DNA from: Mustelus asterias
Taxonomy: Eukaryota
Assembly: GCF_964213995.1 (NCBI RefSeq)
Contig: NC_135830.1
Span: forward strand, 6,758,001-6,822,000
DNA length: 64,000 nt
Reading direction: 5' to 3'
The notes under the pieces are model-generated. The model searched no databases. It saw only the letters and a program-made list of their open reading frames with translations, and was not told the DNA's origin. This document shows, one piece after another, positions 19,274-48,830 of this stretch; position 1 is the stretch's first letter; every line of letters begins with the position of its first letter. Made by a program: the position numbers and the translations under genes.

Positions 19274-19303
19274 TTGCTCAATAATGCTCAGGACACCTCA
19301 ATT

Positions 19304-22522: not shown

Positions 22523-22588
22523 AGGCTCCAGCGAGAATGGAACTCGCGACCCCTGGTTTACAAGACCAGTGCTCTAACCACTGGAGCC
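22523..22588 (-). pseudogene. tRNA-Thr(TGT) with 7-nt deletion in the A box/D stem
   Basis: GGCTCCA^GTGGTTAGAGCACTGGTCT-TGT-AAACCAGGGGTCGCGAGTTCCATTCTCGCTGGAGCCT. Confidence 0.85.
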
Positions 22589-25500
22589 AAATGCTGCAAG
22601 GAGCTGCCACTAAGTGCAGCATTATCCGTGGATTGAGGACCAGGATGGGGTTTGAGGACGGAGATTTTTGATGAATGTGGAAATGTCTGAGGTGGAGAGC
22701 CGGAAGTTAAAAGACAGAAGTTGAAAGTGACATGATTTGACATGTGTATTGTGTATGTACTTGACATGTATGTTGTGTGTGTCATGTGGTTCTTCTTCAG
22801 AGTTTATCGTTAATGTTACATCTCTGATTTTTCCAGCTCTGATACAAGTTCATCCAGCTGGAAGATTTAGCTTGTTGTTCCCTTCACGGACGCTGTTTTT
22901 ATTGAATGAAGAAATGAACAAAAATTTATTCACTCCGAGACTGGGAATCGAAACCGCGTCACGGCGCCGACGCTGATCACTAGACCCTCAGTGACGCTGA
23001 TGTGACAAATATGGAGTGAGTTGATCATCTCTGCACCCATTGCTTCATTTCCAATAACTTTCAATTAAAAAAAAGTCACAATGAGGAATGACGGGAAGCG
23101 CACATGACAGGATTTGAACCTCAGTTAGAAAATCCCAATCCATCCCCTGGGCCGGGACTGCAGTCTCAATGTTTGCAATCCTGCTGTTTAATTCGACAGA
23201 CAGCCATTCAACCGGTGTTCCCGTTTATATTCTCCATCGGAGCAGCTCCACTCCTCCCAGCTTTGACAAAGGGTCATCTGGTCTCGAAATGTCAGCTTTC
23301 TTCACTCCTTACAGATGCTGCCAGACCTGGTGAGATTTTCCAGCATTTTCTCTTTTTGTTTCCGATTCCAGAATCCACGATAATTTGCTCCAGTCCTTCC
23401 ACACTCGTTCCTTTACCTCAACAACTGTTTACATTGCTCTGTCACTCCTCTTTCTTCATGCCAAAAACGACACGGCACAAACTCTTGCATTCAATCTGAA
23501 ATGCTGGATTTCAGCTGCAGGGACCAAAACTCAAACCCATTCTGGCAGTGGCTGCAGTCGAACACAACAACTCCGTAAAGACTGGACCTTCAGCCACTGG
23601 CTTAGATTACTCGGCTACGTTACCATGTCAGCAGTTGTGTCCTTTACTGGTATCGTTATTGAAATTAGCAGCACTGGAGCTGCGACAGTCCATCAGTTGG
23701 CTTGAGCCTGCTCCTTTACTGAATCAATTTATCCTGAACTGTGTAACAAGCAGGAATCACATCCAGTCAGAAACAGAATGAGCTGCAGTGAAGGACCAGC
23801 ACCATTTAAACTGCCCTTAGCCTTGTCTGGTTCCCAATATCCTGCCAGAAATGACAGGAAAAAAACCTCCTGTTGAATTTGCTCAGTCTTCACTTCAGGA
23901 CACGAAGCGAGATTGTGTTTTATATGTTCCACAAGGCAATAACTGACATTTGTTTTTACGGTTTGGATGAGAGCAACAAATCTCCATTACCTGACCACCA
24001 ATCCAAACAGCAGTGAAAGTGTCAAACTCTAACCACCAGACCAGCTGCTTGTAGCCTGTTTTACAACTTGCTTTACACACACTGCATGTGTTGCTTTAGT
24101 TTTCGCACCAGGCCAGACTACATTCACCACAAGCAAGTCTCTGTTGCAATATGGCACCTTCTGTTTCCATCCCAGTGATACATTCAATCAGTGACAACAT
24201 ACAACAGACATTCCACTTACAGTTAATAATTTCACTTCCGACTGTTTGAAACTAGAGAGAACCTTTTCCAAATATTTTCGTTGCAGAGTGAGGGAAAAGT
24301 TGAATAATTCAGTATGAACGCCAAAATCTGACCTTTTTACCATCCAAATGTTACATTACATCACCATCTCTATTGTCAGCGCTTTGCAGCCTATCACTAT
24401 CTTTCTGCTACTGTGTTTGTTCTTGACCTGTTGCACATGTGACATTTCCAGCTGTGAAGTAGACTTGCAAAACTCACTCGGCTGATATTAGTAGATCTGC
24501 TTTCGATCAGATAGTCAATCAGGTTATTTTTTAATAGTTTGCTGAGAGCTATAAATGATCGTTTCCTGAGCGGGAATTGAAAACAAACAACACTGGGGAG
24601 TACTGAATACAACCCACTGGACTCCCAGGGCCACGGGTGAACTGTGTTTTTCAAAATGACTTACCATATATCCCTTAATGTGTCCAGTTTGGATGGAACA
24701 TAAGTGACTGCTTCAGCTAATGACAACACTGATTGTGTTTGCTGGGACATGAAATCGACAGTGAGGTCAAATAGTCCCACAAGATGCTGAAGTGATCGTG
24801 GTATATAAAATTCTAAATAGGATTGAAGAAAATGAAATCTTTTTTCTTATGCGCAATGGGGAACATCATGTCAAATGTATAGGTTGAGAGGTGGTAGATT
24901 TAAAACTGAGATGAGGAGGAACTGCTTCTCACTGAGGGTCGTGAATTTGTGGAATGCATTGCCGTATAGCGCGGTTGAGTCTGAATCATTAAATGATTTC
25001 AAGAAAGAGACAGATATATTCCTGATAATTAAAGGGATGAGGGGATATTGGAATAGGTAGGGAGGTGGATTTGAGACCAGGGAGAGATCAGTAATGAACT
25101 GATTGCATGATGGTTCAGGCTCGAAGCGCTGAATTTGCCCACTTCTGCTCCTAATTCTATGTTCCTAAGTGTAAATTTCAATTTTTCAAACCCACCAACT
25201 CATCACTGTGGCTCCAATGTAATCTATGTACATTACATCCACAGGTTCCCCTTTATCCACAACACAACTGAGTCCTGTAAGGGACTGAGGAATGGCCCCA
25301 TTCTGTGGTTTAATTACTTTAAATTTCTTTGTTTCCCTCATTTAATCTCTCCTGATTTACACCCGGCAAGAGGCCTCAAACCCTCTTGTTATGCTGCTGG
25401 ATAACACTTGTTTAAAACTTCCGACGTTTCTAAAAATTCCCAATTATTCCCAATGAAAGGTTATGGAGCTAAAATATAAGATTTGTTTTCCTGTGCACTG

Positions 25501-25610
25501 AAGCTGTCTGGCTTTCTGAGTTTTTCCAGCATTTTCACCTTTCACTGCAGAAGTCTGAGCCGCTTTGGATGTCAATGGAAATGTTTTCATTGAACAGCAT
25601 CCGCAGCAGC

Positions 25611-25698
25611 GGCTCGTTGGACGAGAGGTATGACTCAGACCTGGGGAGTAAACATCTACAAACGTATCAGCGATCTCGGGTTCATATGCCGGGCTCGA
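25611..25698 (+). pseudogene. Intron-containing tRNA-Pro remnant
   Basis: Paralog of 16642 and 31277, heavily decayed. Confidence 0.6.
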
Positions 25699-26517
25699 TC
25701 CCTCAATCAGCTGTTGTTTCGTATTGGACAAGTCATAGGTTTTCTCAGTGCAAACGTTGGGATTGGTTTACGTGGGATTTGGTTTGAGAACCTGAGCACA
25801 CAGTGCAGGTAATCTATCAAATCAACACTCACACAAGAAAATCAAGACATTAAAAGGTTAATATGCTTGTGGCCACTCACTTTATCGCTGTTCACCAGTT
25901 TAGAGGACCCCATGTTTGTTGGTTGAGACAGCTGGCTGTGTGATTATTGTTATTCATTCGTGGGTTATGGATGTGTACCCCACTCGCTATTTCTGTTTTT
26001 CATTGTCTCTATATATCTCCCGAAGACTCACTGACTATGTTTTTATTACGTTGACATCTTTTGCTCCTTGCTCTGTCCATTATTTCGCTGTCTGTGTGTA
26101 ACCGAGGTTCACTGGATTGATTTCTGCGTTTATCCTGCGAGGAAAGAATCAGTGGGATGAGTCTGTTCGCTCTGGAGTTTAGAATAATCAGAGGTGAGCT
26201 TACTGAAAAGTCTGTAACAGGGAAACAGTTAGACAGTGTAAATGTTGAGTTCCCTCCACCCCTGGCTAAATTATTAAGAACAAAGAAAAATAAGGTGAAT
26301 GATGTAAGAGGAGTTTGGAATATTTGGGAGAGGTGAAGCTAAGAATTGGAAGATGTGAATAACGTAATTAATAATTGAGAGGAATGGATAGGAACTTTGG
26401 GGATTCTGTCGGTCGATTCATTGTAAACTTTGAAATCAGAACAAGCTGAGACACCAGATGGAAAAACCGTATTTGTCTCCATGCATTTTAGGTTATGGAA
26501 AGCCGTGCAGTACATGT

Positions 26518-26590
26518 GCCCGGCTAGCTCAGTCGGTAGAGCATGAGACTCTTAATCTCAGGGTCGTGGGTTCGAGCCCCACGTTGGGCG
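26518..26590 (+). tRNA. tRNA-Lys(CTT)
   Basis: GCCCGGCTAGCTCAGTCGGTAGAGCATGAGACT-CTT-AATCTCAGGGTCGTGGGTTCGAGCCCCACGTTGGGCG is the canonical vertebrate sequence. TTTT follows 7 nt downstream. Confidence 0.97.
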
Positions 26591-29500
26591 TTATTGCTTT
26601 TAAACTTTGCCTCTTTCCTGGGTGAATTCCAGATCTCCGTCCTTCCAGAAGTGTCACCGCTCAAACTGAGTCTTCCTCACAGTTGTGGGTTTGTGACTGA
26701 AAACTGTCTCCAGTTCACTGGAAGGCGGGGAGTTGAGCGCTGAACTCAGCGAGAGGTTTTGTTCTCATTTATTATGAGATTTAAACCCAGATCTGCGAGA
26801 TTGTGTCAGTGGGAACAATAATCATCTCCATTGTAATTCAATCACTCCAGCCTTCCATCCGATCAAAAGACCGCTTGTCCTTTCCTCCTCTCCCTCTCTA
26901 TTTTCCTTGACTCTGTCCTTGTTTGTCAACCATTAAATTACTATTTTCTTCCAGTTAGGGTCAAAGGTCAGCGACCTGAATCATTCACTCTCTTTCCCTC
27001 TCCACAGAAGCTGTTGAAGCCGATGAGTGCTTCCAACATTTTCTGTTTTGAGGTGGGATTCGCAGCAACTAAAATTCATTGTTTTGGATCACAGTGGATC
27101 ACTTTTCTCTGACTGAATCTTACCTGTTTGAACAGTTGAAAGGTTGAGGTTTAAAATCATAAGACACTGGAATATATCACCCTGTTTCACATGAAATGAA
27201 ACAAAATGAGAATTAATCATTTCTTAATATGCTGCTAATGCAATATATATTTTGTTGTCAATGCCATCATTTGTTGTCCATCCCTATTTCCCTCTGAACT
27301 GAGTATTTTTCTGGGCCATTTCAGAGGGCAGTTAAGAGTCAATCACATTGACTTTCCTCTGGAGTCCCATGGAGGGCAGAAAGGGGAAGGATGGCAGATT
27401 TCCTTCTGCAAGATGTGTTTTCATGACAATCAGAAAACAAAGCTTCATTACTGAGACTAGCTTTCAATTCCGTTTCAGTTCTAGACTGCGGTGGGATCGT
27501 GACCTCTGAGCCTGGGCCACAGGATTCATACTCCACTCATTTTACCACTACGTCACAATCTTCCCGGAAGAGTGTAAGTTTAAATCCTTCACATGGAATC
27601 AAACTACTTAATTTCACATTGAAAACAAACATTTAAAGCAGTGTACTTTTGAAATCAGTTTCGTACACTCAGGATACCGGGGAACTGACGAGATATCTAT
27701 TGCTTTCATTCAAAGACAGAAAAATGTGGTGAATCCTCAGCGTGAGTGATGAAGGAGCTGCGCTCCGAAAGCTCGTGATTTCAAACAAACCTGTTGCACT
27801 TTAACCTGGTGTTGTGAGAATTCTTACCGGGTACTGAAGGGCATTTCATTTACAATTCGCAAAAAGATTATTTTTATAAAATTAACAGCTTTCAGCAAAT
27901 CGCACCGCAATCACATTGCAGACGGTGCAGTGAGTTACTCTCCTGGCCTCATTGCATCAGCCCCAGAGGACGATTTCTCAAGAACACAAAACGCTCAGCG
28001 ATAAAGAGATCGGAGGCTTCATTCATCAGGGATTACCCAAGAGCACGTGACCTTTCTCCCAAATCACACACGCACACACACGCCCACAATTGCTCAATAA
28101 TGCTCAGGTCACTTCAATTTCCGTGTTGGTTTCGTCGATAGAATTCGCTGCTTTAACTGCCATGGTCTGGGTTCGATTCACGGTTAGGGAATGATGATTC
28201 ATTGCTCTCGTGCAACACATGAATTAAGGAGAGTGGGTGTGGTTCCTGGTCGAAAACGGGAGAGATACTTGTGGCAGGTTGAACAGGAAGAAGGAAAAAT
28301 CTGCCCCATTCCACAATCCTGTGAATTACCCACAACAATTCATATTTACATTCGGAAGTCTTACAACACCAGGTCTATTTGGAGTCAGGAGCTTTCGGGG
28401 CGCTGATCAAACAAAGCAAATTGATTTTATTATCGGAGCAAATGAACCTGTTGGATTTTAACATGATGCTGTGAGACTTCATATTGTGCCCACCCCAGTC
28501 CAACGCCGGTATCTCGACATCATATTTACATTGCAATTGCTGGTACCAACTGTCAGAATGAGTGAGTTACCTTCGACTGCATAAAATTTCACTGTAGCTC
28601 ACCACATTCAAAGAGTAATGTTTGTTATAAACCTTATTGTGGTAAATCTGTTGAAATCCTTCAGCTTATCACTGCTCTGCTTTCATCACACTGGAAGCTA
28701 ATGTGAAAAGATGAATAATTTCAAAGCTGAACAACGTGCACAAGACTGGAAGGAGAATGCGACTGTGAATTATTGGCACTGTGGAATTCCTGTATTCAGT
28801 CTATGGGAGAACCAGGAGAATGAAATCCTCATGGTCCAGTGCTGAGGATTTGGCGCTTTCAGGGTCATTGATCGGCTTCAATATGCTAAGATTTAAAGTT
28901 TTTGATAATCCATTTAACAAACCTGAGTTGTTTCCTGATCGAAAACAGCTCTGTCAGAAGCAGTGGAGTTAGATCTATATTTGTGTCCGAATTGGAAATG
29001 TCACATGGGCAACAGTTCAAGAACAAACACAGATAGTGAAGGACAGTGATAGGCTGCAAAGCGCTGCCAATAGATCAGGAATTTGTCTGTCCCAACCTGA
29101 AATGTGTTCAATGAGGGAAATACACAGTAAGTCGGCAAAGATCAGTGGAGTGAGGACTGAGTTAAACTTTCACCAGCATGCTGTTTTTTATAATTGCAAA
29201 GTCCTGAGATTGAGAGCAGAGAGTTCATATTTGAGGCGTTTCAGTTCTTTGAGAGATGAATGCCTGCCGTGGTTTACAAGGTAAGTTTCACAGGATCAGT
29301 AATGATGAGATTGGTGGGTTTCGGAAATTAAAATTTACACGTGAACAGCTTGTGGGACTATTTCATTTATCGTTGCCGTCTTGCGGTGTGTTTTATGTTC
29401 TGATAAAACCTGTATTTATAATACAAGCATTAGACGGTGGAAATTCTCAGCAGGTTTGACAGAATCTGTGGACACGCATCAAATTCTAAACACTTCCATT

Positions 29501-30081
29501 TGTCACCTGTGTTCCTGAAGTATACTGATTATTGTGTTCAAAAAAACTGATAATACCTTTTCAAAACAGCTGTCCCATCTCTAAGTGTTATTAAATATTA
29601 AGGAATCACATTATCTCACAGCCATGTGGCATTTACACTTCCCCAATGCTTGAATAATATTCTGCAACTGCAGTCATGGAGAAAGAGATAAAATTCGGGA
29701 CAAATGCTATTTTCTAAATCTTATGTTAGATGAATGACTCTGCCACATGGCTAAGGTTTTCAACAGAATTATAATTCTACAAAGCAAGGATTTAAATTGC
29801 AATCAGACTGCACTGTTTGATATTCTAGGCCGGTCACATTGGTCATGAGCAGAGCTTCTGGATTGTAGGAGTTAACATGTTCATTTCATATACGAAAGGC
29901 TCCCCGATTTAAAATAAGGTCGAAACATAATTGAAATTAACATTTTTTTAAATTTTCCCCGATTCTAGATCGTTGTTGCATATGAACTGAATTAGAGCAA
30001 ACAAAATGTTAGTTTGTACTTCATCATTGATTGCAAAAATGCCCTGAAGGGGTATAGCTCATTGATATTAAGGGAATATTC

Positions 30082-30153
30082 AGAGGCATCCGATTTGAAT
30101 GCAGAAGCGTCTTGACTTGCAGTCAAATGCCCGACCCCTAAGCTATATTCCTT
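30082..30153 (-). pseudogene. tRNA-Cys remnant
   Basis: Minus strand ...TATAGCTTAGGGGTCGGGCATTTGACTGCAAGTCAAGA...TTCAAATCGG. Confidence 0.6.
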
Positions 30154-31276
30154 CAATGTCTAACCTCCGTTTTGTTGCTCCTTTGTCCTCTGTCTCGCGT
30201 GATCTATGGTTATGTTTGTTCCTCTGTGTCCGCCACTATGCTTACGTACCTCATGGGCGTGGACATGTTTTTTACCATCACAAATTCTATTCACTTACTT
30301 TATAAACCTTCATGGTAAATGTACGGAACAGCAAGAAGTTTAAAGTTGTGAGATGAAATTGACCCTTTCTGTTATTTGTGAGTGGAGGGTGCTTATTGAC
30401 TGAGTTACCGTACGTTCCATTGTGTAAAGTGATTAACATTTTTCTTTGATCAACATTTAAACAGACAGCGGATTCACTCAGTGTGGTGGTGGGTTCCAGT
30501 TCTATATCTGCGATCACAGCATCAATTCATGCCACTTACTGTCAACCCAATATTTCTAATAGTTTGGATGACCCAATATTTCTAACACGTTGGATGTTTA
30601 ATCTAATTTACTTCGTTTTATATTTCATTATTTTCATCTCAGATCTATTTCCACCAGAGGCAGGTCTCTCTTTCAAAATGTTCTGTTCAGGTAGAACAGG
30701 AGTTAGTCCTTCATCCAATGGCAACAAGGATTACTTTTCGCTGCAGCATGAAAGCGGGAAAGAGATGAAATAGTCAGACAAGCTGCTCATGTGTTCCTCT
30801 CAATTTCCCAAATCCACCAACCTCATCACTGCAGCTCCTGTGAAATCGCTGTACAGTACACCCACCGGCTTCGTATTATCCACAGGACACGTGACTTCTT
30901 CAAAGATTTTGTGCATGGTCTCATTCTGCGGTGCAAACATTCTATGATACTCTGCTTTCCTCACGCTCAGACCATGGACTGTAAACAAGTTGTTCATTTA
31001 TCTCTCTTGAATTGTACCCGGTCAGGGCCCTTTCCTGCTGTTATGTTTCCTCGCTCCTCCTGGATTTCACTTGTTTAAAACTTCCTACATTTTCAAACTT
31101 TACCAGCTTAAAGGGTAAAATGAAAGGTTATGAAGGTGTAAGAAGAGAGTCCTTTCCCTGTGTGCACTTGCTGCCTGGCTTCCTGAGTTTCTCCAGCGCT
31201 TCCAGCTTTCAGGGCAGCTGTCTGATCAGATTTGTATGACAATATATATCCGTATTTGAGGAGCTCCCGCAACAGC

Positions 31277-31366
31277 GGCTCGTTGGTCTAGGGGTATGAT
31301 TCTCGCTTTGGGTGTTGTGATGCGCAAGGCTGCGAGAGGTCCCGGGTTCAATTCCCGGGCGAGCCC
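31277..31366 (+). tRNA. tRNA-Pro(TGG) with an 18-nt intron (31313-31330)
   Basis: Exons join to a canonical 72-nt Pro-TGG. The insert TGTTGTGATGCGCAAGGC lies exactly one base 3' of the anticodon (position 37/38). Confidence 0.9.
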
Positions 31367-31993
31367 CATTGTTGTTGTTTGCAATGGCAAAGTCTTGTTC
31401 ATTTCTTTGCCGTGCACACGGCAGGATGAGTTTTCCCGCGGTTTGGTTTGGGAAACTGACAACACAAGGAATCTAACAACACAACGCACTCACAGGCAGT
31501 TCAAGATGTTTTCAAAAGTTGACTCTTCTTTTGGACCTTCTCTTTATCCCTAGTCAACAATTCAGAGGACCCAATGCTTGTGGGTTCCGGCCGCTGGCTT
31601 TGTGTACATTGTTATTCATTCATACGATGTGGCTGACTCCCCCACGCACTGTCTATATCTGTCTCTCTCTGTTTCTGTGTAACGACCTCATTATTTTGCA
31701 CTCTCTCAGTCTCTCACTGTGCCTCTATCCACTTTCCATAGTGTATTCTTGTTTCCCTCTATTCTCGCGCTGTCTGTGTAACGAAGGTTCAATGGATTGA
31801 TTGCTGTGATGAGACAGTTGCCCTTGGAGGAGAGATTCATTGTGGTTACCCTTTTCTCTCTAGAGTTTGGAATAATAAAAAGTGATCCCATTGACAAGTC
31901 TGCAACGGCGAGACTGTTTGATAGTGTGCATGCTGAAGGATTGTTTCCACCGCTCCCCCCAGTTCTCCTCCTCCCCACCCCCACCACCACCCG

Positions 31994-32304
31994 CTGGGGT
32001 AAACACAGTACGAAGTCTCACAACACCAGGTTAAAGTCCAACAGGTTTATTTGGTAGCACAAGCCACAAGCTTACGGAGCACTGCCCCTTCATCAGGTGA
32101 GTGGGAGTTGTGTTCACAAACAGGGCATATATAGACACAAACTCAATTTACAAAATAATGGTTGGAATGCGAGTCTTTACGGGTAATCAGGTCTTAAATG
32201 TACAGACATTGTGAGTGGAGAGAGGGTTAAGCACAGGTTAAAGAGGTGTGTATTGTCTCCAGCCAGGACGGTTGGTGAGATTTTGCAAGCCCAGGCAAGT
32301 CGTT
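31994..32304 (-). mobile_element. Penelope-like terminal repeat (pLTR) fragment with hammerhead-like motif
   Basis: Reverse complement of ~55440-55752. Reads CAC-CTGATGA-AGGGGCAGTGCTCC-GTAA-GCTTGTG. Confidence 0.85.
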
Positions 32305-32870
32305 GACTATCTCTAAGAATTCATTCCGTCTCTAAATGCCTGTAGATCCTGTCTCTCAAAATACCTTCCAACAACTTACCCATCACAGATGTGAGGCTCA
32401 CTGGCCTGTAGTTCCCAGGCTTTTCCCTGCAGCCCTTTTTAAACAAGCACAACATTTACCACCCTCCAATCTTCAGGCACCTCACCTGTGACTATCGATG
32501 ATTCAAATATCTCTGCTAGGGGACCCTCAATTTCCTCCTTAGCCTCCCACAATGTCCTGGGATATACTTCATCAGGTCCCGGGATTTATCCACCTCGATG
32601 CGCGTTAAGACTTCCAGCACCTCCTTATCTGTAATATGTACAGTCCTCAAGACATCACTATTTATTTCCTGAAGTTCCCTAACATCTATTCTTTTCTCTG
32701 CAGCAAATACTGATGAGAAATATTCATTTAGCACCTCACCCATCTCTTGTGGATCCGCACTCAGATGATCTTGTTGATCCTTAAGAGGCCCTACTCTCTC
32801 CCTTGCTACTCTTTTGCCCTTTCTGTCTTTGTCGAAGCTCTTTGGATTCTCCTTTGCCTTGTCTGCCAAA
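32305..32870 (-). mobile_element. CR1 internal fragment
   Basis: KENPKSF..KGKR, MGEVLNEYFSSVF and YRPVSLTS-like motifs. Confidence 0.85.
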
Positions 32871-33639
32871 ACAAGTATTTTGGCAGATAGGTTGCACATC
32901 TGCCTCATTGATGTGGTTGGTGGGTTATGAAAATTGAAAGTTACACTTAGGAACATAGGAATTAAGATCAGCAGTGGGCAAATTCAGCGCTTCGAGCCTG
33001 CTCCAGCATTCAATCAGTTCATGGCTGATCTTTCCCTGGTCTCAAATCCACTGCCCCTTATCTGTTAATTCATTTTGTATTGGAAATATATCTGTCTCCT
33101 TCTTTAAACCTTTTTAATGATTCAGACTCCACCGTTCTATGGGGCAGCGAGTTCCAAAAATCGACGACCATTAGCAATAAGTAGTTCCCCAGCATCTCCG
33201 TTTTAAATCTACCGCCTCTCTACCTATCCATGTGACAGTAGGTTGGTTCTATTCCTTCCCCACAGATGCTGTCAGATCAGTTGAGATTTCCAAGCATTTT
33301 CTGTTTTTTGCACAGATTCCAGCATTCATTGTATTTTGTTTTTTTGTGTAATTGTGACCTCTTGATCTCGATTGCCCAATAAGAAGAAACATTTTGTCTA
33401 TGTTCACTCTATCATCCCTCGTAAAATTTTATGTAATTCGATCACTTCAGCATCTTGTGGGACGATTTCGCCTCAGTGTCAATTTCATGCCCCAGCAAAC
33501 TCCCAGCGACTGTATACCGCTGTGCCGCCAGCTAGCAGAGATGGCAGCGCAGTGGGATACAATCGGGAGTGAGTTGCCCTGGGAATTCTTAACATCGACT
33601 CTGTCGTCTCATGGCTTCAGGTTAAACATGTGGAAGGAA

Positions 33640-35080
33640 ACCTCTAACTGGATACCAGGTGCCGCCCTCCTTCGGCTCATGAATCAGTGATCCTCCATGT
33701 TGAAATACACTTGGAGGAAGCACTGAGGGTGGCAAGGGCGCAGAATGTACTCTGGATGGGGGATTTCAATGTCCACCACCGAGAATGGCTCAGTCGCAGC
33801 AATACTGATCGAGCTGGTCGGGTCTTAAAAGATGTAACTGTTAGACTTGATCTGCAGCAGCTGGTGAAGGAACCAACAAGAGGAAATAACATACTTGACC
33901 TCATCCTTACCAATCTACCGGCTGCAGATGCAACTGTCCACGACGGTATCTGCAAGAGTGATCACTGCATAATCCGTGTGGAGACGAAGTCGCGCCTTTG
34001 CATTGAGAATAGCCTCCATTGTGTTATGTGGCACTATCACCGTGTTTAATGGGACAGACTTCGAACCGATCTAGCAACTCAAGACTAGGCATGCATGGGG
34101 CGTTGTGGGCCACCAACAGCAGGGGAACTGTACTCCAGCACAATCTGCAATCTCATGGCCCAGAATATACCCCAAATACCATTACTATCAAGTCAGGGAA
34201 TCAACTCTGGTTCAATGGAGAGTGCAAGTGTGTGTGTGTGTGTGGGTGGGGGGGGGGGGGGGGGGGGGGGCGCAGGAGTAGCACCAGGCATACCAAAAAG
34301 TGAGGTGTCAACCTGGAGAAACTACCAAACAGGGCTATGTACATGCCAAATGGCAAAAACAACAAGTGATAGACAGAGGTAAGCGATCCCACAACCAACA
34401 GATCAGATCTAACCTCTTCAGTCCTTCCACATCCAGTCGTGAATGGTGGTGGACAATTAAACAACTCACTGGAGGAAGAAAATCCACAAATATCCTCAAC
34501 CTCACTGATGGGTGCAGCCCAGCACCTCATTGCAAAAGATAAACCTGAAGAATTCGAAGCAATCTTCAGCCAGGAGTGTCGACTGGATGATCCATCTCGG
34601 CCTCCTCCAGTGGTCCCCAGCATCTCAAATGCTCGTCTCCAGCCAATTCGATTCACTCCAATTGATACCAAGAAACGGTTGGAGGCACTGGATACTGGAA
34701 AGGCAATGGGCCCTGATAACATTCCGGCAAAAGTACTTGTGCTGTCGAAGTTACCGCTCCCCTAGCCGAGTTCTTCTCGGACAATTACAACACTGGCATC
34801 TACGCAACAATGTGGAAAATTGCCCAGGTATGTCCTGCACAAAAAAAGGCACGGCAAATTCAACTAGCCAATTACCGCCAAATTAGACGACTGTCGATCA
34901 TCTGTAAAGCGATGGCAGGGTCATCAACAGACCTCCTCAGCAAAGCCCAGTTTGAGTTTCGCCAGGGTGACTCAGCTGCTGTCCTCATTTGAGCTTTTGT
35001 TCAAACATGGACAAAGGAGCTGAATTCCCGAGGTGAGCTGAGAGTGATCGGTCTTGACATCAAGGCCGCATTAGCCCGAG
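33640..35080 (+). mobile_element. Decayed LINE of a second family (APE endonuclease to RT start)
   Basis: GDFNVHH, PTRGNNILDLILTN, SDH and KAMGPDNIP in broken frames. Related pieces at ~35875-36300 and 62530-63680 (-). Confidence 0.85.
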
Positions 35081-35130
35081 CGTTTAAATTACCAAGTGTA
35101 ACTTGCGGCTATAAACTAAAGTTGAAAATA

Positions 35131-35187
35131 AGGCTCCAGCGAGGATCGAACTCGCGACCAGTGCTCTAACCACTGAGCCATGGAGCC
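35131..35187 (-). pseudogene. tRNA-Thr gene lacking the anticodon loop (16-nt deletion)
   Basis: GGCTCCATGGCTCAGTGGTTAGAGCACTGGTC^GCGAGTTCGATCCTCGCTGGAGCCT, then TATTTT. Confidence 0.85.
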
Positions 35188-38100: not shown

Positions 38101-38735
38101 CATTGCATCCTCTCATGTTATTTGCATGTTTCCCAATGTTGGGGGCCTGCCTTTCAGTGAGCTGAAATATCCCAATCTGGGATTTAATCAATGTGCCTAT
38201 TGGGAAGATCGCTATATTGTTAGGCACACGGGTGGGAATGAAGTCCCCGGTAATGCAAGGCGGAAGCACTGGGTTACGAATTGTGTCAGAAAACATTTCA
38301 CCGACATTCAAAATGAGAATGAACATTAATGGTAACTTGTTCCCAGGGATTGTTTTAAATAGCACAATGACAACCTTGCGAAATGTATATTTAATTTAAG
38401 CTGTTCATTAGACAGCAAAATACTCTGACCAAACAGACTCTTTGAGCAAAGCGACCTCGAAGCGGAGAGTCAAGATGGGGAAAGTGCTATACAGTAATTC
38501 ACGCAGGCAAGGGAATATCATCAAAGGACTACGCGTGAGTGAACGAACCATAACTCTATTTTTAGTATAGTTGCAAGTTAAAAACCCAACTGCGGCACAG
38601 CTATTCATGTTGCGTGTCCTGTTTTGATATTTCATTTATGATCCTGTGACTCTTTCTGTGGACACGATATAATTGTTTCTGTTTATCGGTGCGGGAGCGC
38701 CCTCTGCTGATCTCTAACCGGAACTCCCAGTCTGG

Positions 38736-38775
38736 GGCTTTTGTGCGGGGTTCGCTGTATTTCTGCACCAGTGTG
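38736..38775 (-). other. Recombination signal sequence (23-type; CACACTG-24 nt-ACAAAAGCC)
   Basis: Directly follows YFCAME on the minus strand. Confidence 0.75.
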
Positions 38776-39438
38776 AACTCCATGGCACAGAAATACACGG
38801 CGCAGTCAGTCCTAAGAGCCCTGGCGATTTTTAAGGGAACAGTGTTGTTTCCTTTGTGCAACGCAGCCGAGAACCTATCTGACAAATCCGGAGACGTATC
38901 GGTATTGCCCGAGCTATATATCTTCATCAAATATCTCAGAGCTTGCCCGGGATAGTGGATCATAGAAATCATAGAAACCTTACAGTACAGAAAGAGGCCA
39001 TTCGGCCCATCGAGTCTGCACCGACCACAATCCCACCCAGGCCCTACCCCCATATCCCTACATATTTTACCCACTCATCCCTCTAATCTACACATCCCAG
39101 GACACTAAAGGCAATTTTAGCATGGCCAATCAACCTAACCCGCACATCTTTGGACTGTGGGAGGAAACCGGAGCACCCGGAGAAAACCCACGCAGACACG
39201 AGGAGAATGTGCAAACTCCACACAGACAGTGACCTAAGCCGGGAATCGAACCCAGGTCCCTGGAGCTGTGAAGCAGCAGTGCTAACCACTGTGCTACCGT
39301 GCCCCCCACTATTCTGGATGCACCAGAACACAGTTTGAAAAGCAGCTGTCGAGTATTTACAGTCCAACAATATGCTCTGTCCTTCCAGAACGCTTCATTT
39401 AGATCGATCTTGAAATCCTGAATCTTCAACATTTATCC
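38776..39438 (-). pseudogene. TCR alpha/delta-like V exon (in-frame stop plus SINE insertion)
   Basis: After TTGTTACAG acceptor: INVEDSGFQDRSK*SVLEGQSILLDCKYSTAAFQTVFWCI[SINE]HYPGQALRYLMKIYSSGNTDTSPDLSDRFSAALHKGNNTVPLKIARALRTDCAVYFCAME, then RSS. Confidence 0.88.
38961..39314 (-). mobile_element. Full-length HE1-like SINE inside the V exon
   Basis: tRNA head with A and B boxes, CR1-like tail ending in (TTTCTATGA)2, and 5-bp TSD ATCCA (plus 38956-38960 and 39315-39319). Confidence 0.92.
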
Positions 39439-39554
39439 CTGTAACAAAACACAGAAGATATTAAATATCTCAGAGCGAAGAGAACCCATGGAACAGGCAC
39501 TGATCATTCAAACATTGGCTTAATGCTGGAAATTTTCAGTCACATCAACACTTC

Positions 39555-39793
39555 AATGAAGTTAATGTGAAAATCCCCCAGTCGCCATACTCTGGCGCCT
39601 GTTCGGGTACACTTAGGGAAACGTTAGCATGGCCAATGCACCTAACCAGCACATCGTTCGGACTGCGGGAGGAAACCGGAGCACCCGGAGGAAACTCACG
39701 CAGATACGGGGAGAATCTTCAGACTCCACACAGACAGTGACTGAACCCGGGTCCCCAGCGCTGTAACGCAGCACGGCTAACCACTGTGCCACG
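39555..39793 (-). mobile_element. HE1-like SINE variant
   Basis: GTGGCACAGTGGTTAG head and the shared SINE body. Confidence 0.8.
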
Positions 39794-40530
39794 ATGTCGG
39801 ATTATTCTTGCAGTACTTTTACTATTGCAATGTAATTTGATGCATTTGAACGCATGCATGAGAGATAATCCCAATTCTATTTCGTTGCTGGCGATTCGCT
39901 TTATTCAATTAATAGTGGGTGTAAACGCCCATTTTAAACAAGAAAGAGCCATCAAGATTCCGATAAGATGCCTACTCTAAAATAACAACACAAGATGCAA
40001 ACATGACCCTGGATTCACATTCATTTCCTATATTCTTTCGTTATTTGCATTTAAATCTTTCCATCGTAATGTTACCCCTTAAGTTCTGGTTATTAACTTT
40101 ATCAATTATTGCTGCTCCAATATAATGAGTAATTGAGTGGACTCGTTGAAATGGGAGAGTGGGAGAAATCGGATTGTCTCAACCCTGAATTTTAGGGAAA
40201 AGGGGAGAAACAGAAGAATGTAGAGCAAGTGTGAAGACAGAGACGGTCAGAAGCAGGACAAAGGGAGATAGAGAAACCGAGGCGGAATGACAGAACGAGA
40301 TACATCGGTCCCAAACGAAAAGAGAACCGGAGAACCCGAGAAATACAGGGAGAAAGAGAAACTCAGAATCTATTAGTCCAGAGACTTGTGACACTAATAA
40401 ATAAACGTAGATTTAAAACGAATGCAGTAACGTCCTTCCGTATTCTGAGAATTCGGTGGTTTTCCAGAAAATAACTATGTACCTCGGATCGCCGCCAGAT
40501 GGAGCTGCCTCACCGCATGTGTGTGTTTAC

Positions 40531-40578
40531 TGCAGGGGCACGAGAAGGATCACAATGTGATACCGATACTAGCTTCAT
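40531..40578 (-). pseudogene. Possible decayed leader exon of the minus-strand V
   Basis: ATGAAGCTAGTATCGG...ATTGTGATCCTTCTCGTGCCCCTGCA|GTAAAC. It is hydrophobic only with a frameshift. CRE-like TGACGCCA (~40616-40623) and CCAAT (~40672-40676) lie upstream. Confidence 0.3.
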
Positions 40579-41299
40579 TCTCAGGTTGTCAAGGGGCTCT
40601 CGGAAATCTCCCTGCTGGCGTCACGTTCTAAATTATGTTATTTATCTTTCGCTTTCTGGAATCCCTTCCTGATTGGATTTAGGCCATTGATTTTCAAGTT
40701 GTACCCGTTTGTTCCTGTCACTGTCTATCTCTGTTTCTCTTGTGATCTGTTCGTTTGTCTCTCTTTGAGTCACTCTCTGTATTATCTCTACATATCTGCA
40801 ACTGTTCCCTTCACCGTATCATCATCTATTTCCCTTGCTGCCCCCGTCTCTCCCTCGTTTATCTCAATGTCCCACTTTTTATCACTCTGCCACTGCCTCA
40901 TTTCTCTCATTCTCTTTCCTCTTGCTCATCTCTCTACATCTCCATCTGTTCTTCTCCACTCATCTCTCTCCTTCGATCACGGTCTCGGCCTTCGAATCAC
41001 TCAGTGTCTTTGCATTCGTTTACCTTCATTTCTTAGCTTGGATGTTTCTGTGTTGCTGAACTTGTTTCTCTCAAGGGATCTGCATCTAATCCGCTGTTGT
41101 ACAATCAGTATATTGTTTTATTTAAAATCGCAACCCGACGAAATCTACTGTTCAGAACGAAGCGTTCAGTGTGAATAGGTCACGCACATGACAGTGAGAT
41201 TAATGATCTTGAGAAGTCATCACAAACCTACATAAAAATAAATAAAATTCAACATGAACGACTTAAACCGATCAAATAAAAAACTGCTTCCACCTGAGA

Positions 41300-41990
41300 A
41301 CTCTGGGTCTGTACTCGATGCTGTTTAGAGTGATGTGGGAGATCTCTTTGAAGTTTACAGAATACGGAAAGGCCTGGATAGAGTAGACGTGTAGAAGATG
41401 TTTCCATTAGTAGGAGAGTCTTGGATCCGAGGCACTGCCTCAGAGTAAAGTGGGGACCCGTTTGAATCGAGATGTGGAGTAATTTCTTCAGCCAGAGGGT
41501 GGTGAATCTGTGGAATTGCTTGACACAGAAGGCTAAGAAGGCCAGATCATTGCGTATATTTAAGACAGAGATCGATAGGTTCTTGATTGGTGAAGGGATC
41601 AAACGTTATGGGGAAAAGATGGGAGAATGGGGTTGAGAAACCGCACAGGGCTGGCACTCTAGCACAATGGTTAGCACTGTTGCCTCACAGCGCCAGAGGC
41701 CCGGGTTCAATTCCAGCCTCGGGTCACTGCCTGTGCCGAGTCTGCACATTCTCCCCGTGTCTGCGTGGGTTTCCTCCCACAGTCCAAAAGTATGTGGGTT
41801 AGGTTGATTGGCCATGGAGTTACGGGAACGGGGCCTGTGTGGGACTGTGGTCGGTGAAGACTCGATGGGCAGAAAGGCCTACTCCTGCACTGTAGGGATT
41901 CTATGACTCTGTAGGGATTCTAAACATATCGGCCATGTCTGAATGATGGAGCAGACCTGATGGGCCGAATGGCCTAACTCTGCCTAATTT
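41300..41990 (+). mobile_element. CR1 3' fragment with nested HE1-like SINE (~41648-41920)
   Basis: FFSQRVVNLWN-like region followed by a SINE head CTAGCACAATGGTTAGCACTG. Confidence 0.8.
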
Positions 41991-42147
41991 TGCAAAGCTG
42001 ATTCTTCCCTCACACCACACATTGCACTCACTCAGTGACTGACTCCAGTCTCAGATATTTAATACAGTTGGTCAAAGAGCTTCAGCCAATCACTGAAACT
42101 CATTTAAATATTATCTCAATCTATGACGGGTAGATTGCAGATTGTTT

Positions 42148-42184
42148 GATTGGACGGGAACATTGAAATCAGAAAGTGACGTTA
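42148..42184 (+). promoter_or_regulatory. V-gene promoter: inverted CCAAT and CRE/decamer-like AGTGACGTTA
   Basis: GATTGG at 42148 and AGTGACGTTA at 42175-42184, ~70 nt upstream of the leader ATG. Resembles the TCR V promoter decamer AGTGAYRTCA. Confidence 0.5.
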
Positions 42185-42253
42185 CAAATAGATTCCGTAC
42201 CGGTAATGCTTGGATTTTTAAAGGTAACCACAGCCCCGGGCTCTCCAGCCGCT

Positions 42254-42299
42254 ATGGAGTTCCTCACCGTCTGCATTGTGTTTGGGCTGTTTCTTGTCG
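42254..42299 (+). other. Leader exon of the plus-strand TCR V
   Basis: MEFLTVCIVFGLFLV plus 1 nt, then GTAAGG donor. Phase 1 matches the V exon at 45558. Confidence 0.85.
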
Positions 42300-42787
42300 G
42301 TAAGGATGACTCCAATCTGGTTAAATGTTATCTCGATCTGAAACTTTAACTCTGCTTCTCTCCAGTGATGCTTCCTGACGCTGCTGAGTAATTCAGCCTT
42401 TATTTGTTTTTATTTCATAATTTTATTTCATAATTAGCAGGAGTGCTGAGAGTAAGCTAAGAAGTGATTTAATTATTCATTTATTCATTTAAGGGTATTC
42501 CTAGTATATTTCGCGGGCTTTTTTCAGGGTTTTGAATTGAGGAAGTGAGGTCAGCTGAAGGGGATTCTGGGAGGTTGAGTCTTAGTATAAAAGGCAGTTA
42601 CTTGGGGGGTTCGTCGGGAGCATAAAAAGCCGTCTGCACTATACAGCGGGCAGCGTCGGGAGCGGGCAGTGGAGTGAGTGGGTAGCAGAGTGTGCATTAT
42701 AAGGGCTTTGGCTCACAGGGCTTGGGCTAAAAGGGCAAGGCAAGGCTAGTTATTTTTTACCCAACCCTATAAAGGATAAGGGCAGGT

Positions 42788-43804
42788 ATGAGTGATCGGC
42801 CAGTTCAGTGCTTCCGATGAGGGATGTGGGAGTTTCTGCAAACACCGAGCTTCCCAGAGGTTCACATATGTGCCAGGTGCGTGGAACTGCAGCTCTTGAG
42901 AGACCGTGTTAGGGAACTGGAGCTGCAGATCGCTGACCTTAGCCTAATCAGGGAAAATGGGAGAAAAATTGACAGCAGTTATAGGCAACTAGTTACACCG
43001 GGGCATCGGGAGAATGACACGTGGGTCACAGTTAGGAGGAGTAAAGGGCAGAAGGGTAAAGTACAAGGGAGGTCTCCAGAGATGTCTCAAAATAGGAAGG
43101 GCTTGGTGACAGGTGTGAGAGGGGAGGGGAGTGGACAGTTAGAAGAAGGGTCACCTGTGGTTGTCCCACTCCAAAACAGGTACATTGTTTTAGATAGTGT
43201 GGAGGAGTGTGCCTCTCCAGGGGTAAGACACAGTGAGCAGGTCACTGGCACACAGTCAGGCTCTGTGGCCCGGAAAGGGAAGAGAGGGGTTAGGAGAGCG
43301 ATAGTGGTGGGGGATGCGTCAGTTAGAGGGACAGACAGGCGATTCTGTGGGGGTGAACGGGACTCCAGGATGGTAGTCTGCCTACCTGGTGCTGGGGTCA
43401 CGGATGTCTCCGAGCGGATAGGAGGCATTTTAAAAGGGGAAGATAAAGAAACGGATGTCATTATACACATTGGTGGAAATGACGTAGATAGGAAGAGTAG
43501 GGGGGTCCTAAGGGAGCAATTCAGGGAGTTGGGAAATAGGTTAAAAAGTAGGGTCACTAGGGTGGCCATCTCTGGGCTGCTCCCAATGCCTCGTGCCAGT
43601 GAGGATAAGAATAGGGAGTTGGTTCAAATGAATGCCTGGCTAAAGGACTGGTCCAGGAGGGAGGGCTTTATTTTCATAGACCAATGGGAGGTTTTCAGGA
43701 GAGGATGGCACCTGTACAAGAGGGAGGGGTCACAACTAAGTTGGAAGGGCACAAATATCCTGGCTGGGAGCTTTGCTAATGCAGTTCGGGGGGGTTTAAA
43801 CTAG
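42788..43804 (+). CDS. CR1 ORF1 (Zn finger/leucine zipper plus SGNH esterase), TGA at 42818-42820
   Basis: QCFR*...ICARC, LELQIADL, IVVGDAS and IIHIGGND. Confidence 0.85.
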
Positions 43805-43845
43805 TATGGCAGGGGGGTGGGGATCAAACTATTAGGTCTATAAGT

Positions 43846-44805
43846 GTGGTGGCTGGGGACGAGCTTGGGGCTGGGACAAGGCTGGCAAAGAAGAAGAGCA
43901 CTCTGGGGGAGGACGACCTCACTGAGCCTGGGGGTCTGGAGTGCTTATACTTCAATGCAAGGAGCGTAGCAGGTAAAACAGACGAACTTGGGGCCTTAAT
44001 GCGCACGAGGAATTTGGATGTGGTTGCGGTGACGGAGACTTGGTTGAAAGAGGGACAGGACTGGCAGCTGAATATTCCAGGGTACAAGTGTTTTAGGCGA
44101 GACAGAGGAGGGGCCAAAAGAGGTGGGGGAGTAGCGGTATTGGTTGGAGAGCATATTACAGCGGTGCAGAGGGAGGACAATTCGGAGGAGTCGTGTAGCG
44201 AGTCACTCTGGGTGGAGCTTAGAAACAGGAAAGGCGCAGTCACTATGTTGGGGGTGTACTACAGGCCCCCCAACAGCCCAAGGGAAGTGGAAGAATGGAT
44301 ATGTCAGGAGATACTGGATAGGTGCAGGAAATATAGGGTTGTTGTAGTGGGAGACTTCAATTTCCCTGGTATAGACTGGAAATCGCTGAGGGCAGGGACT
44401 CTGGATGGTGAGGCATTTGTAAAATGTGTACAGGAGGGTTCGTTGGAACAATATGTGGACAGCCCAACTAGAGAGGGGGCTATACTGGACCTGGTGCTGG
44501 GGAATGAGCCCGGTCAGGTCTTCAAAGTTTTGGTCGGGGAACATGTGGCAAATAGTGACCACAATTCTGTTAGCTTTAGGATAGTGATGGAAAAGGATGA
44601 GTGGTGTCCCAAGAGTAAGGTGTTGGATTGGGGGAAGGCTAACTTTATTGGGATCAGGCAGAAATTGGCAGCTCTTGATTGGGAGAGGCTGTTTGAGGGT
44701 AAATCCACATCTGGTATGTGGCAGTCTTTTAAGGAACGGTTGTTAGGGCTACAGGACAAGCATGTGCCTGTAAAAAAGAAGGATAGGAAGGGGAGGATTA
44801 GAGAA
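43846..44805 (+). CDS. CR1 ORF2 N-terminal APE endonuclease (truncated)
   Basis: YFNARS, VTETWL, YYRPP, GDFN, LDLVL and SDH. Confidence 0.9.
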
Positions 44806-45557
44806 CGTGTTGCCGGGCAAGGTGGTGGAGGCGGACACACTGGGAACGTTTAAGACTTATCTAGACAGCTATATGAACGGAGTGGGAATGGAGGGATACA
44901 AAAGAGTGGTCTAGTTTGGACCAGGGAGCGGCGCGGGCTAATTGTTCCTTGTTTCTCGTTTCAAGGCTTCATTCTACGATCATCTTGCTGGTGCCAGTAC
45001 AGAGCGAGACTGCGGATAGTTGGGAACCTGTCTCGGGGGCAGGGAATTCATATGGTGTTCGTGGAAGTGGAAATGACTAGGGTTGGGAAGCATTTTCCGA
45101 TCGGGGCCATTGTGATCTCCTGGACTCGTTTCGATCGCCTCAGGGGGTCGGAGAGGAATTTCCCAGATTTTTTTTTCCCCATATTGGCCCTGGGGTTTTT
45201 CACTCTGGGTTTTCGCCTCTCCCTGGAGATCACATGGTCTGGAATGGAGGGGTGGGGGTAAGTTAATAGGTTGTAATGAACAAAGCATCGTAGCTGTGAG
45301 GGACAGCTCGGTGGATAGGATATTGGTATGTAGATAGGCTGGAAAATTGGGCGGGGATCCTGGATTCAGGATTCAATCCTGGACCGGGGAGCGGCGCGGG
45401 CTTGGAGGGCCGAAGGGCCTGTTCCTGTGCTGTATTGTTCTTTGTTCTTTGTTTGTTCTTTGTTCCAGTTATGTCGCTGTGAATGTAAAGTGTTAATATT
45501 ATTTCAGCAGCACATCCAACACATAGCCTTTCTTTTCTTCTCGAATACATGTTACAG

Positions 45558-45865
45558 ATCCGAGTGATGGAGATTCTGTTTCTCAGCCGCAGTCTTTAGA
45601 GAGGAGAGAAGGTGAAACGGTGACTCTCCGATGTACCTACAGCACTACAACAAGCGGCTATGTCTTATCTTGGTGCAGGCAGCAGCCACAGAAGGATTTG
45701 CAGTTCATTATACAGAAAATGGCCCTGGGATACACAAGAAGACAGAGGAGAAGGTTTTGGACCCAATTTCTCTGCTGATCTCCAGACCTCGGCTAAATTA
45801 ACCACTGTAACCATCTCGAGCCTACAGCTGACTGACGCTGGCCGCTATTACTGCGCTTTCAGCCT
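45558..45865 (+). pseudogene. TCR alpha/delta-like V exon with a frameshift at ~45716-45719
   Basis: DPSDGDSVSQPQSLERREGETVTLRCTYSTTTSGYVLSWCRQQPQKDLQFIIQK / WPWDTQEDRGEGFGPNFSADLQTSAKLTTVTISSLQLTDAGRYYCAFS. The conserved Cys, Trp and YYC are present. Confidence 0.92.
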
Positions 45866-45904
45866 CACAGTGATAGAAAGCAGTCTCACCCCCGTACAAA
45901 AAAC
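45866..45904 (+). other. 23-RSS (CACAGTG-23 nt-ACAAAAAAC)
   Basis: Consensus heptamer, exact 23-nt spacer, and 8/9 nonamer. Confidence 0.92.
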
Positions 45905-47039: not shown

Positions 47040-48830
47040 TCCCTTTAGGTTTTATAGTAACCAATCATTTCTGTAGCGTATTGGTCATCACGCTCCCCTT
47101 ACACGCGAAAAGTCACTGGTTTGCAACCGATTGGAAATATAGAACTGCGATGTTTGCAGGATTCAAGTTTGTTTCTGAACATTATCAGAATCTTGATGTT
47201 ACAGCCATATTATATTTGCCGTGACCTCGGCCCCAAATGCTTTCAGCAAATTCAGAAATGCTGCATTTTAAGACGTCATGAGGAATGAAATGTTCCTATT
47301 TTGATAAGATGCACATGTTGGCAATTCGTTCAGTGGACAACAGAATTCAATGGGTTTATAGGTGCAGACTAACATGTCTGCACCTATAAACCTATAATCA
47401 CCATCTGAAACATATCTAATAGAATTGTGTGCTAATAAAACGGACACAAGTGATACTGTAACTGAACTAGAGGAAATGGCAACATTGCGCAGAACAATCT
47501 TTTAACATCGTTCATCATAATAGAGAAGTAGCAAAAAAACACTCAGGCAGATGACGAAATCGAGACTCAGTGCGATCTGCTGGACTTCCCTATAGATGAA
47601 CAGGATTTAGGCGCCAGAATGTTTCACACCCAGAATAAAAGGGGATCAGGTATAACTAATAGATCATTCTTAAACTTCTTCCCTTTTAAGATATTTGACT
47701 TTGTTTAATAGCTGCCTGTGCTCAATCTGAAATAAACACCATGGGATCCGTATCACCCAGCGACTCGATTTCTTTTCACACACAAAAACAGAAAATGCTG
47801 GAAAACCTCAGCAGGTCTGACAGCGTCTGTGGGGAGAGAATAGAGCCAACGTTTCGAGTCTAATAGATGACGCGTCGTCAGATAACTTTTGTTAACTGAG
47901 GCAAAATGCAGAAACTCCTTCTTCAAATTTGGATTGGACAATGACTTCACACGGTGAAAAATCAGCTTCATGGAATGAAAGGAGGAAATACGTTCTGACG
48001 AAGGGTCATCTGGACTCAAAACTTTGGCTCCATTCTCTCCCTACAGATGCTGGCAGTCCTGCTGGGATTTTGCGGCATTTGTTGTTTTTGTTTCAGATTC
48101 CAGCATCCGCAGTGTTTTGCTTTAAACTCGATTTCTTTTGTTGGTCAGTCATGTTTGCAATTCAATATTGTGTATTTCAGATAAGTTCAATTCACAATGA
48201 TGACAGTTATATTAATAAATGTACGGCCTTTAAATATTGACAGAATATGCGCAGTTTAGGTGGATTGGCCATGCTAAACTGCCCCTTAGGTTAGATAGAT
48301 CATCCAGAGGAAAGCTGTGGTGTTACGGGGATAGGATGTCAGAAGGTCGGTGCATACTCGTTGGGTCGAATCGCATTTTCTGCACGATAGGGATTCTATG
48401 ATTCTATGAAACATACACTGAGTAGAATTGGTTGATACTATTGGAAGGAAGGTGAGAATGATGCATCAATGATTGAGCATAAATCATTGCTCTCTTAGAC
48501 ATTTGCCAGATGAAAGATTTTAAATTTTGAAGTTCAAGATAAATTGAGACATCCGGTCGGAAGTAACGTTTGTCTTCCTGTATTCAGTGACATGGGCTGC
48601 CAGTCTCACCATTAGAACCTGCAACAACATAGTGGAGTTGAACATTGCAGACAGCCTGATTGCATGGGCTCAGCGATCAACTGCTTCAGTATAGTGGTTA
48701 TCATGTTCGCCTAACACGCGAAAAGCCCCTAGTTCTAAAACCAGGAAGAAAAATCAATTGTTTCTCGCTCAGTTTGAGGGACGTTTGTAGAATTTAAATT
48801 TCTTGCCCAATCTTAATAGCTCCCAGGGCT
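47040..48830 (+). repeat. Inverted, diverged copy of the tRNA-Val repeat unit
   Basis: Reverse complements of unit blocks (GGGTTTATAGGTGCAGACTAA, AAATCATTGCTCTCTTAGACATTTGCCAGA). Val pseudogenes at 47067-47139 (TAC) and ~48682-48752 (AAC). Confidence 0.88.
47777..48125. mobile_element. Non-coding element with inverted hammerhead-like arms and a 14-bp TSD
   Basis: ACTCGATTTCTTTT at 47763-47776 and 48126-48139. CTGACGA...GAAAC motifs on opposite strands at 47845-47886 and 47991-48030. Confidence 0.8.

Follow-up and report, generated by a model that had tools for sequence, protein, structure and literature searches.

A decayed head-to-head pair of TCR alpha/delta-type V segments, duplicated together with tRNA genes, in the antigen-receptor complex of the shark Mustelus asterias

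Among described systems, the locus analyzed here most resembles the antigen-receptor complex (AgRC) of elasmobranchs described by Flajnik et al. (2025; PMC12227049). There, IgH clusters are interspersed over megabases with TCR alpha/delta V exons of either orientation, and pseudogenes and NAR-TCR cassettes are present as well. In Table S1 of that paper, which derives from NCBI gene models and is not exhaustive, the great white shark has a minus V and a plus V separated by 3.5 kb, and no species has more than one delta C or more than one alpha C. TCR alpha/delta is described there as a translocon, and for sharks the paper, like reviews of the field, reserves cluster organization for the Ig loci and regards the TCR loci as translocons; the word tRNA is absent from its main text. 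Two further systems are relevant: the shark IgH miniclusters, which are repeated V-D-J-C units, some of them partly germline-joined (PMC6795676), and the newt, which has two TRDC-J-V clusters, two TRA loci and expressed inverted V genes (TRB) (PMC12698447).

The window, by which we mean the whole 64-kb stretch of DNA that was analyzed, is part of the 20.4-Mb contig C71 and holds two V segments arranged head to head, with their RSSs facing outward. An earlier note on this DNA had described a minus-strand V and a plus-strand leader and V, head to head and dissimilar, and its exon coordinates were confirmed (39438-38776 for minus V; leader 42254-42299, a phase-1 intron and V exon 45558-45865 for plus V), with 27 of 96 aligned residues identical between the two. 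Both exons encode a V-set Ig domain with Cys23, Trp41 and Cys104 and no J strand, and the V-set E-values for intact paralogues of minus V and plus V (3e-16 and 6e-16, respectively) argue that the pair is not due to chance. What the earlier reading missed is that both V segments in the window are dead: neither combines an open frame, a leader and a usable RSS, and each is a pseudogene. Taken by itself, the V pair is ordinary V-gene decay.

The layout of leader, phase-1 intron, V exon and 23-RSS that is typical of TRAV/TRDV was found in plus V. Its leader exon (plus strand; MEFLTVCIVFGLFLV) has a phase-1 GT donor, and its V exon is followed by a 23-RSS (45866..45904, plus strand) consisting of CACAGTG, a 23-nt spacer and ACAAAAAAC. 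The frame is shifted by a single additional base near 45720; assembly error was ruled out as the source because the exact sequence across the site was found in independent Logan contigs of X1 and X3, which were used for sequence presence, their depth not being taken as copy number. The RSS would still be cuttable, but the resulting chain would be out of frame. The intron contains a young, internally deleted, ~3-kb non-LTR retrotransposon (42421..45463, plus strand), a LINE with a GDSL-esterase ORF1, an endonuclease and a TTGTTCT tail, which the paralogues lack and which matches another copy, at C71:6.595-6.599 Mb, with 98.8-99% identity. The close plus-V paralogues are all open (12 of 12), each with a leader and a 23-RSS.

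Minus V (38776..39438, minus strand), which has 84% identity to its intact relative P0002, departs from that layout in having lost its leader exon, which its intact relatives do have, and in its RSS (38736..38775, minus strand; CACACTG and ACAAAAGCC), whose spacer is 24 nt long versus 22 nt in the intact relatives L033-L035. The 23-type RSS previously assigned to both segments therefore holds exactly for plus V, and both spacers (23 and 24 nt) fall within 23 ± 1 nt. Minus V also has a stop at 39397 and, in framework 2, a SINE (38961..39319, minus strand) with a 5-nt target-site duplication, ATCCA, and an empty site in L026; the case for these lesions is their sharing among copies, the stop being present in 12 and the SINE in five of the 15 fetched. 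Upstream, positions 39794..40381 are inverted relative to the intact relative L033, and the leader exon has been deleted beside them. A candidate CTCF-like motif (38698..38709, minus strand), a putative binding site and the sole exact match to the consensus in the window, follows the nonamer of minus V at a distance of 26 nt and was found in all 15 minus-V copies.

No D, J or C segments are present in the window, in agreement with the earlier note, or within 200 kb on either side of it. Farther out, C71 is a shark antigen-receptor complex carrying IgM, NAR-TCR and TCR alpha/delta, with C1 exons spread from 1.6 to 13.5 Mb. The inspection of the flanking megabases that had been recommended located a complete delta D-J-C module, the nearest, 313 kb downstream and on the same strand as plus V, and a J-alpha/C-alpha locus on the same contig. 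The order at C71:7.06-7.14 Mb is IgM V-D-D-J-C, NAR-TCR, D, J segments, C-delta and TM, and one IgM cluster and one NAR-TCR cassette stand between plus V and the nearest D. The V pair is linked in cis to delta D-J-C (C71:7.117-7.142 Mb) and to alpha J-C (C71:18.37-18.43 Mb).

We favor, at a probability of about 0.75, the reading that the dead V pair was duplicated with tRNA genes within the antigen-receptor complex and that its intact sisters likely rearrange by RAG to delta D-J-C modules. An intact sister V with its 23-RSS would join a D or J with a 12-RSS by deletion or by inversion, depending on orientation; the inversional joining that had been proposed for one orientation could thus apply to the intact sisters only, as both window copies are unable to make a chain. 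As the delta J and C genes of this region are present in 19 assembled copies, the intact sisters likely join a nearby delta copy and not one distant locus. No rearranged transcript of either V family was seen; no RNA run was listed for plus V, a result that carries no weight as to expression. They might instead serve TCR alpha only, the J-alpha array being 11.6 Mb from the V pair.

A genome search for C-delta and TM matches identified 19 assembled copies of the TCR-delta C gene versus two of C-alpha, which differs from the numbers given for the AgRC. Three of the 19 are on C71 and 16 on small separate contigs, a D region is upstream of 18, and several delta modules contain germline V-D joins, none of which, among those examined, uses the minus-V or plus-V family. 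The 60 kb lying upstream of the J-alpha array on C71 hold no C-delta, nor did we find the arrangement of a single translocon, with one delta D-J-C block beside that array. The Pfam model for TCR alpha C (PF09291) had no match in the genome, but this carries no weight as it had none in the controls either. Since some C-delta copies are near-identical (0-0.5%) and 16 of 19 are on small contigs, the true number of loci is below 19. It is nevertheless rather improbable that most of the C-delta modules and cassette copies arose in assembly, as retained haplotigs or false duplications, and that a single ordinary translocon underlies them. The placement of most copies on small contigs and the divergence of only 0.0-0.5% between some of them, such as L107 and L108, would fit such an artefact; however, the 13 of 19 copies that were aligned form seven groups 1.4-14% apart, which is more than two haplotypes can give, the three C-delta copies on C71 have differing flanks, and even L107 and L108 differ upstream (free D versus joined V-D). 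Moreover, C-alpha has only two copies, which are 83% identical, and no near-identical duplicate.

As for the duplication itself, the V pair was probably copied as a head-to-head cassette with neighboring tRNA genes by segmental duplication inside the complex. The head-to-head pairing of both V genes recurs at seven places, as seven duplicated cassette copies, and window positions 8828-64000 are collinear, tRNAs included, with C71:9.39-9.45 Mb at 92-99% identity, which supports the earlier suggestion that V genes were carried with duplications of the tRNA block. That block (3687..35187; Val, Val, Leu, Lys, Cys, Asn, Thr, Lys and a Thr remnant) is one arm of an inverted duplication and was in part co-duplicated with the V pair. 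The claim that tRNA repeats flank the pair on both sides stands for the left, where all the intact tRNA genes in the window are found (eight by ARAGORN and nine by Rfam, the last at 35131-35187), but not for the right, where plus V is followed only by a pair of decayed tRNA-Val pseudogene repeat units (47067..48750, plus strand; at 47067-47139 and about 48692-48750) and the next tRNA called is at a distance of 80 kb. A relaxed ARAGORN search with introns made 75 calls, which were treated as noise, and an Rfam tRNA search of the genome scored only 63 candidates and yields no genome-wide density. The tRNA genes may be passengers of duplication, and the locus as a whole may reflect birth-and-death turnover through duplication and retro-insertion.

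The earlier note had also raised a possible insulator role for the tDNA, considered here as the reading that the tRNA genes are insulators or boundary elements organizing the V field. Barrier activity of tDNA is established in yeast and mammals, and tRNA genes are dense near the V pair (69 calls in 464 kb) and scarce near the D-J-C modules (one in 580 kb), so that they do mark separate domains. An insulator role nonetheless appears unlikely: the tRNAs are co-duplicated with V genes of which both window copies are dead, the units adjoining plus V are decayed, and tRNA genes are near-absent around the D-J-C modules. In addition, the 30 kb fetched for an intact sister at C71:14.79 Mb contain no tRNA, large tRNA arrays are found on other chromosomes too (C16 and C11), and the putative CTCF-like motif directly behind the RSS is a more direct candidate. 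Considerably less probable still is that the pair are orphon V genes moved out of a TCR locus by tRNA-block duplications; the absence of D, J and C from the 200 kb to either side and the co-duplication with tRNAs would favor this, but C71 also bears IgM clusters, NAR-TCR, three delta modules, including the complete one 313 kb away, and the J-alpha/C-alpha locus, which refutes it as long as C71 has no misjoin from 6.80 to 7.12 Mb. Because C71 is an antigen-receptor complex, and TCR alpha/delta V scattered in both orientations are already published for the shark complex (PMC12227049), we do not regard the pair as orphons.

The assignment of the pair to shark TCR alpha/delta-type V was upheld by structural matches, relatives and phylogeny. 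The best single-domain PDB matches of the intact sister P0001 are to TCR delta/alpha V, and the protein nearest to it is P0019, a V-J-C chain of a sawshark (63% identity), which as a whole chain matches human TCR delta chains best. Longer homologous proteins were also sought, with no hits. In a tree of 19 rows, from which TCR beta, gamma and IgL V were left out and the long-branch row V_7.0977 was dropped, neither V segment belongs to the IgH V clade or the supporting-V clade; plus V joins TCR V-J-C chains in a 96/93 clade, and minus V groups with an unnamed Callorhinchus V. Plus V shares its split leader, phase-1 intron, V-set exon and 23-RSS with TRAV/TRDV genes (human TRDV1 and TRAV types; sawshark P0019), from which the window copies differ in both being pseudogenes. 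That these are V exons of non-rearranging IgSF genes has nothing but the V-set fold in its favor and a negligible probability, as the exons stop at a consensus RSS right after YYC without a J/G strand and group with TCR V, and it is refuted by the RSS kept in 12 of 12 plus-V paralogues.

The importance of these results lies in the genomic context and not in the V pair itself. We are inclined to think, with some reservation, that TCR-delta in this shark has changed from translocon organization to a multicluster like that of antibody genes, with ~10 or more D-J-C modules across the complex, some having NAR-TCR/IgH segments germline-joined to D, each module using a local V field, and V-plus-tRNA cassettes seeding those fields. 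Marsupial TCR-mu clusters would be a parallel to such multiplied delta modules. The delta modules also look like the shark IgH miniclusters (PMC6795676), although one V per cluster is present there, whereas here delta D-J-C repeats stand amid a free V field. Similarly, the newt shares a duplication of delta C-J units, the presence of two alpha loci and V genes in inverted orientation (PMC12698447), but has two units without D, compared with up to 19 in the shark, with D and germline V-D joins. If true, many delta D-J-C modules, some germline pre-joined, would blur the divide between translocon and cluster, and would account for the way in which V segments of either orientation, spread across 10 Mb, find their partners. 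It would also raise the testable question of allelic and locus exclusion in gamma-delta T cells.

The two V segments of the window lie where the earlier note had placed them and are as dissimilar as it had claimed, with 27 of 96 aligned residues identical, and its assignment of the pair to the TCR alpha/delta type was upheld. The intact sister proteins of the two families, P0001 for plus V and P0002 for minus V, are V-set domains. The best single-domain PDB matches of P0001 were TCR delta and alpha V, and in the database a Pristiophorus V-J-C chain stands closest to it (63%); the full length of that chain best matched human TCR delta (E about 1e-37 versus 7e-23 for alpha). In a tree of 19 rows, without beta, gamma or IgL rows, plus V fell inside a 96/93 clade containing TCR V-J-C chains, and both V segments fell outside the IgH V and supporting-V clades.

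Both segments are pseudogenes. Plus V has a leader (42254–42299, plus strand), a phase-1 intron, a V exon (45558–45865) and, 3' of the latter, the RSS CACAGTG-23-ACAAAAAAC, in keeping with the layout and 23-nt spacer expected of it. Its lesion is one surplus base near 45720 relative to the paralogue L002; assembly error is an unlikely source of this base, because the exact window sequence across the site is present in Logan contigs of X1 and X3, two samples of one study. The intron contains a non-LTR retrotransposon of 3.04 kb with frames for an esterase and an endonuclease; a copy 200 kb away matches it at 99% identity, and the element was not found in the plus V paralogues. At 42177–42184, 70 nt 5' of the leader, is TGACGTTA, which we take to be a CRE-like motif of the type found in TCR V promoters. 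Minus V (39438–38776, minus strand) is interrupted by a stop at 39397 and by a SINE of 359 nt bordered by a 5-nt target duplication, and it carries the RSS CACACTG-24-ACAAAAGCC, whose 24-nt spacer departs from the 23-type signal attributed to it. It also lacks the expected leader exon, and the DNA upstream is inverted compared with intact relatives. The stop recurs in 12 and the SINE in five of the 15 copies fetched; three are undamaged and have a leader and a spacer of 22 nt. A candidate CTCF-like motif, presumed from its resemblance to the consensus, lies at 38698–38709, 26 nt behind the minus V nonamer, a distance kept in all 15 copies.

The head-to-head pair is present at seven places: 6.80 and 9.43 Mb on contig C71 and on contigs C1069, C549, C353, C210 and C96. 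The close plus-V paralogues (12/12) are open, with a 23-RSS and a leader-to-RSS span of 0.56 kb, so that the cassette normally comprises one live V and a dead one. Window positions 8828–64000 are collinear with C71:9.39–9.45 Mb (92–99%), tRNA genes included, and the tRNA block has a mirror-image arm at C71:6.63–6.70 Mb; these arrangements show that large duplications carry V and tRNA genes jointly, as the earlier note had entertained. Within the block, 14200–20300 and 23100–29100 form a ~9 kb tandem duplication (85–92% identity), and a tandem array of ~28 tRNA-Val(AAC) genes occupies C71:6.677–6.711 Mb; it belongs to a large inverted duplication, the second arm of which is window 2300–27400. 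Flanking tRNA repeats had been described on both sides of the pair, but every tRNA gene in the window (eight by ARAGORN, nine by Rfam) is to its left, and the tRNA-Val units to its right (47067 and 48692) are all decayed. The 200-kb flanks of the window hold 46 and 15 tRNA calls, respectively, together with a few further V segments, mostly broken; no C or J was found in them. An insulator role proposed for the tRNA genes was not sustained: the density contrast, 69 per 464 kb around the V pair versus 1 per 580 kb around the D-J-C blocks, is real, yet it is no demonstration of insulation, and tRNA arrays are present on other chromosomes too.

The window (positions 6758001–6822000 of the 20.4-Mb C71 in the Mustelus asterias assembly, G000) is part of a much larger receptor region, in which C1-set exons of either orientation are spread over 1.6–13.5 Mb (150 of the 793 candidates were scored). 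Inspection of the flanking megabases, as had been advised, located the segments missing from the window. On plus V's strand at 7.06–7.14 Mb are, in order, an IgM V-D-D-J-C, a NAR-TCR cassette, D, J segments, C-delta and TM. The D at 7117162 bears 12-RSS and 23-RSS flanks and lies 313 kb from the plus V RSS, a pairing that satisfies the 12/23 rule. Two perfect 23-RSS, 61 nt apart, stand behind the NAR-TCR supporting V (L124:9239 and 9300; C71:7.0912 Mb). A long J-alpha array with C-alpha is located at 18.37–18.43 Mb, and the 60 kb upstream of it contain no C-delta; a paralogous array with C-alpha lies at C546:121–242 kb, and a D-like remnant at 120.8 kb of that contig. This layout agrees with the elasmobranch antigen-receptor complex outlined in PMC12227049, in which TCR alpha/delta V exons sit between IgH clusters. 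The great white sheet of its Table S1 has V in both orientations across 9 Mb, among them a minus/plus pair separated by 3.5 kb. Because interspersed V in both orientations and such a pair are published there, the arrangement is ordinary, and the V pair represents ordinary dead V segments within a known kind of locus.

The multiplied delta modules are the unexpected part of the locus. A C-delta query matched 19 C and 19 TM exons (70/70 candidates scored), with three copies on C71 at 7.14, 11.04 and 12.27 Mb (7138105, 11043423 and 12270568) and the remainder on 16 other contigs, versus two copies of C-alpha (83% DNA identity). A D-region match lies 12–22 kb upstream on the same strand in 18 of the 19, 11 of them whole and seven comprising the 23-RSS side only. 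The figure of 19 is a maximum, given that haplotigs may be among the copies; the 13 copies aligned form seven groups, 1.4–2.4% apart and one 14% apart, and therefore at least four loci are needed. Under the label Mustelus asterias, NCBI has at least eight gene models with this C-delta, named alpha-like or uncharacterized, and two other sharks have one each (among 10 of 136 candidates), but the former possibly come from the same assembly and hence are not independent evidence. Cartilaginous fish TCR segments are placed in translocons by PMC6795676, and two TRDC-J-V clusters are described in a newt by PMC12698447. The titles and abstract openings searched reported neither tRNA genes interspersed with shark TCR V segments nor amplified shark C-delta, although Deiss 2019, Ott 2021 or Criscitiello 2010, supplements included, may affect how new these features are.

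All seven partial D matches proved to be joins in which the D's own 12-RSS is gone. At L160:3469–3820 (C71:11.0235–11.0238 Mb), the 3' part of D-delta, together with its 23-RSS, follows a dead TCR V without a gap, probably as the product of an ancient V-D join in the germline. Five contigs carry the NAR-TCR supporting V in a join with D-delta, immediately 5' of its own J-delta and C-delta; one junction is common to L186 (C119:553.7 kb), L184 (C436:213.7 kb) and L189 (C96:1455.1 kb), and those of L178 (C850:36.3 kb) and L181 (C401:0.9 kb) differ from it. L191 (C138:217.7–218.5 kb) has, in order, an IgM-type VH, a fusion of an IgH-type D with the TCR-delta D, J-delta and C-delta, and is likely a germline Ig-TCR delta chimeric module. 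Because diverged copies have a common junction and decay followed joining, the sequences point to an origin of these joins in the germline. Neither window V family was found in any germline join.

From the lesions, duplication, linkage and module number observed in the assembly, we infer birth-and-death evolution of the V segments through segmental duplication, in which the tRNA genes would be passengers. The intact sisters of the dead pair may be joined by RAG to a local delta module, or to J-alpha.
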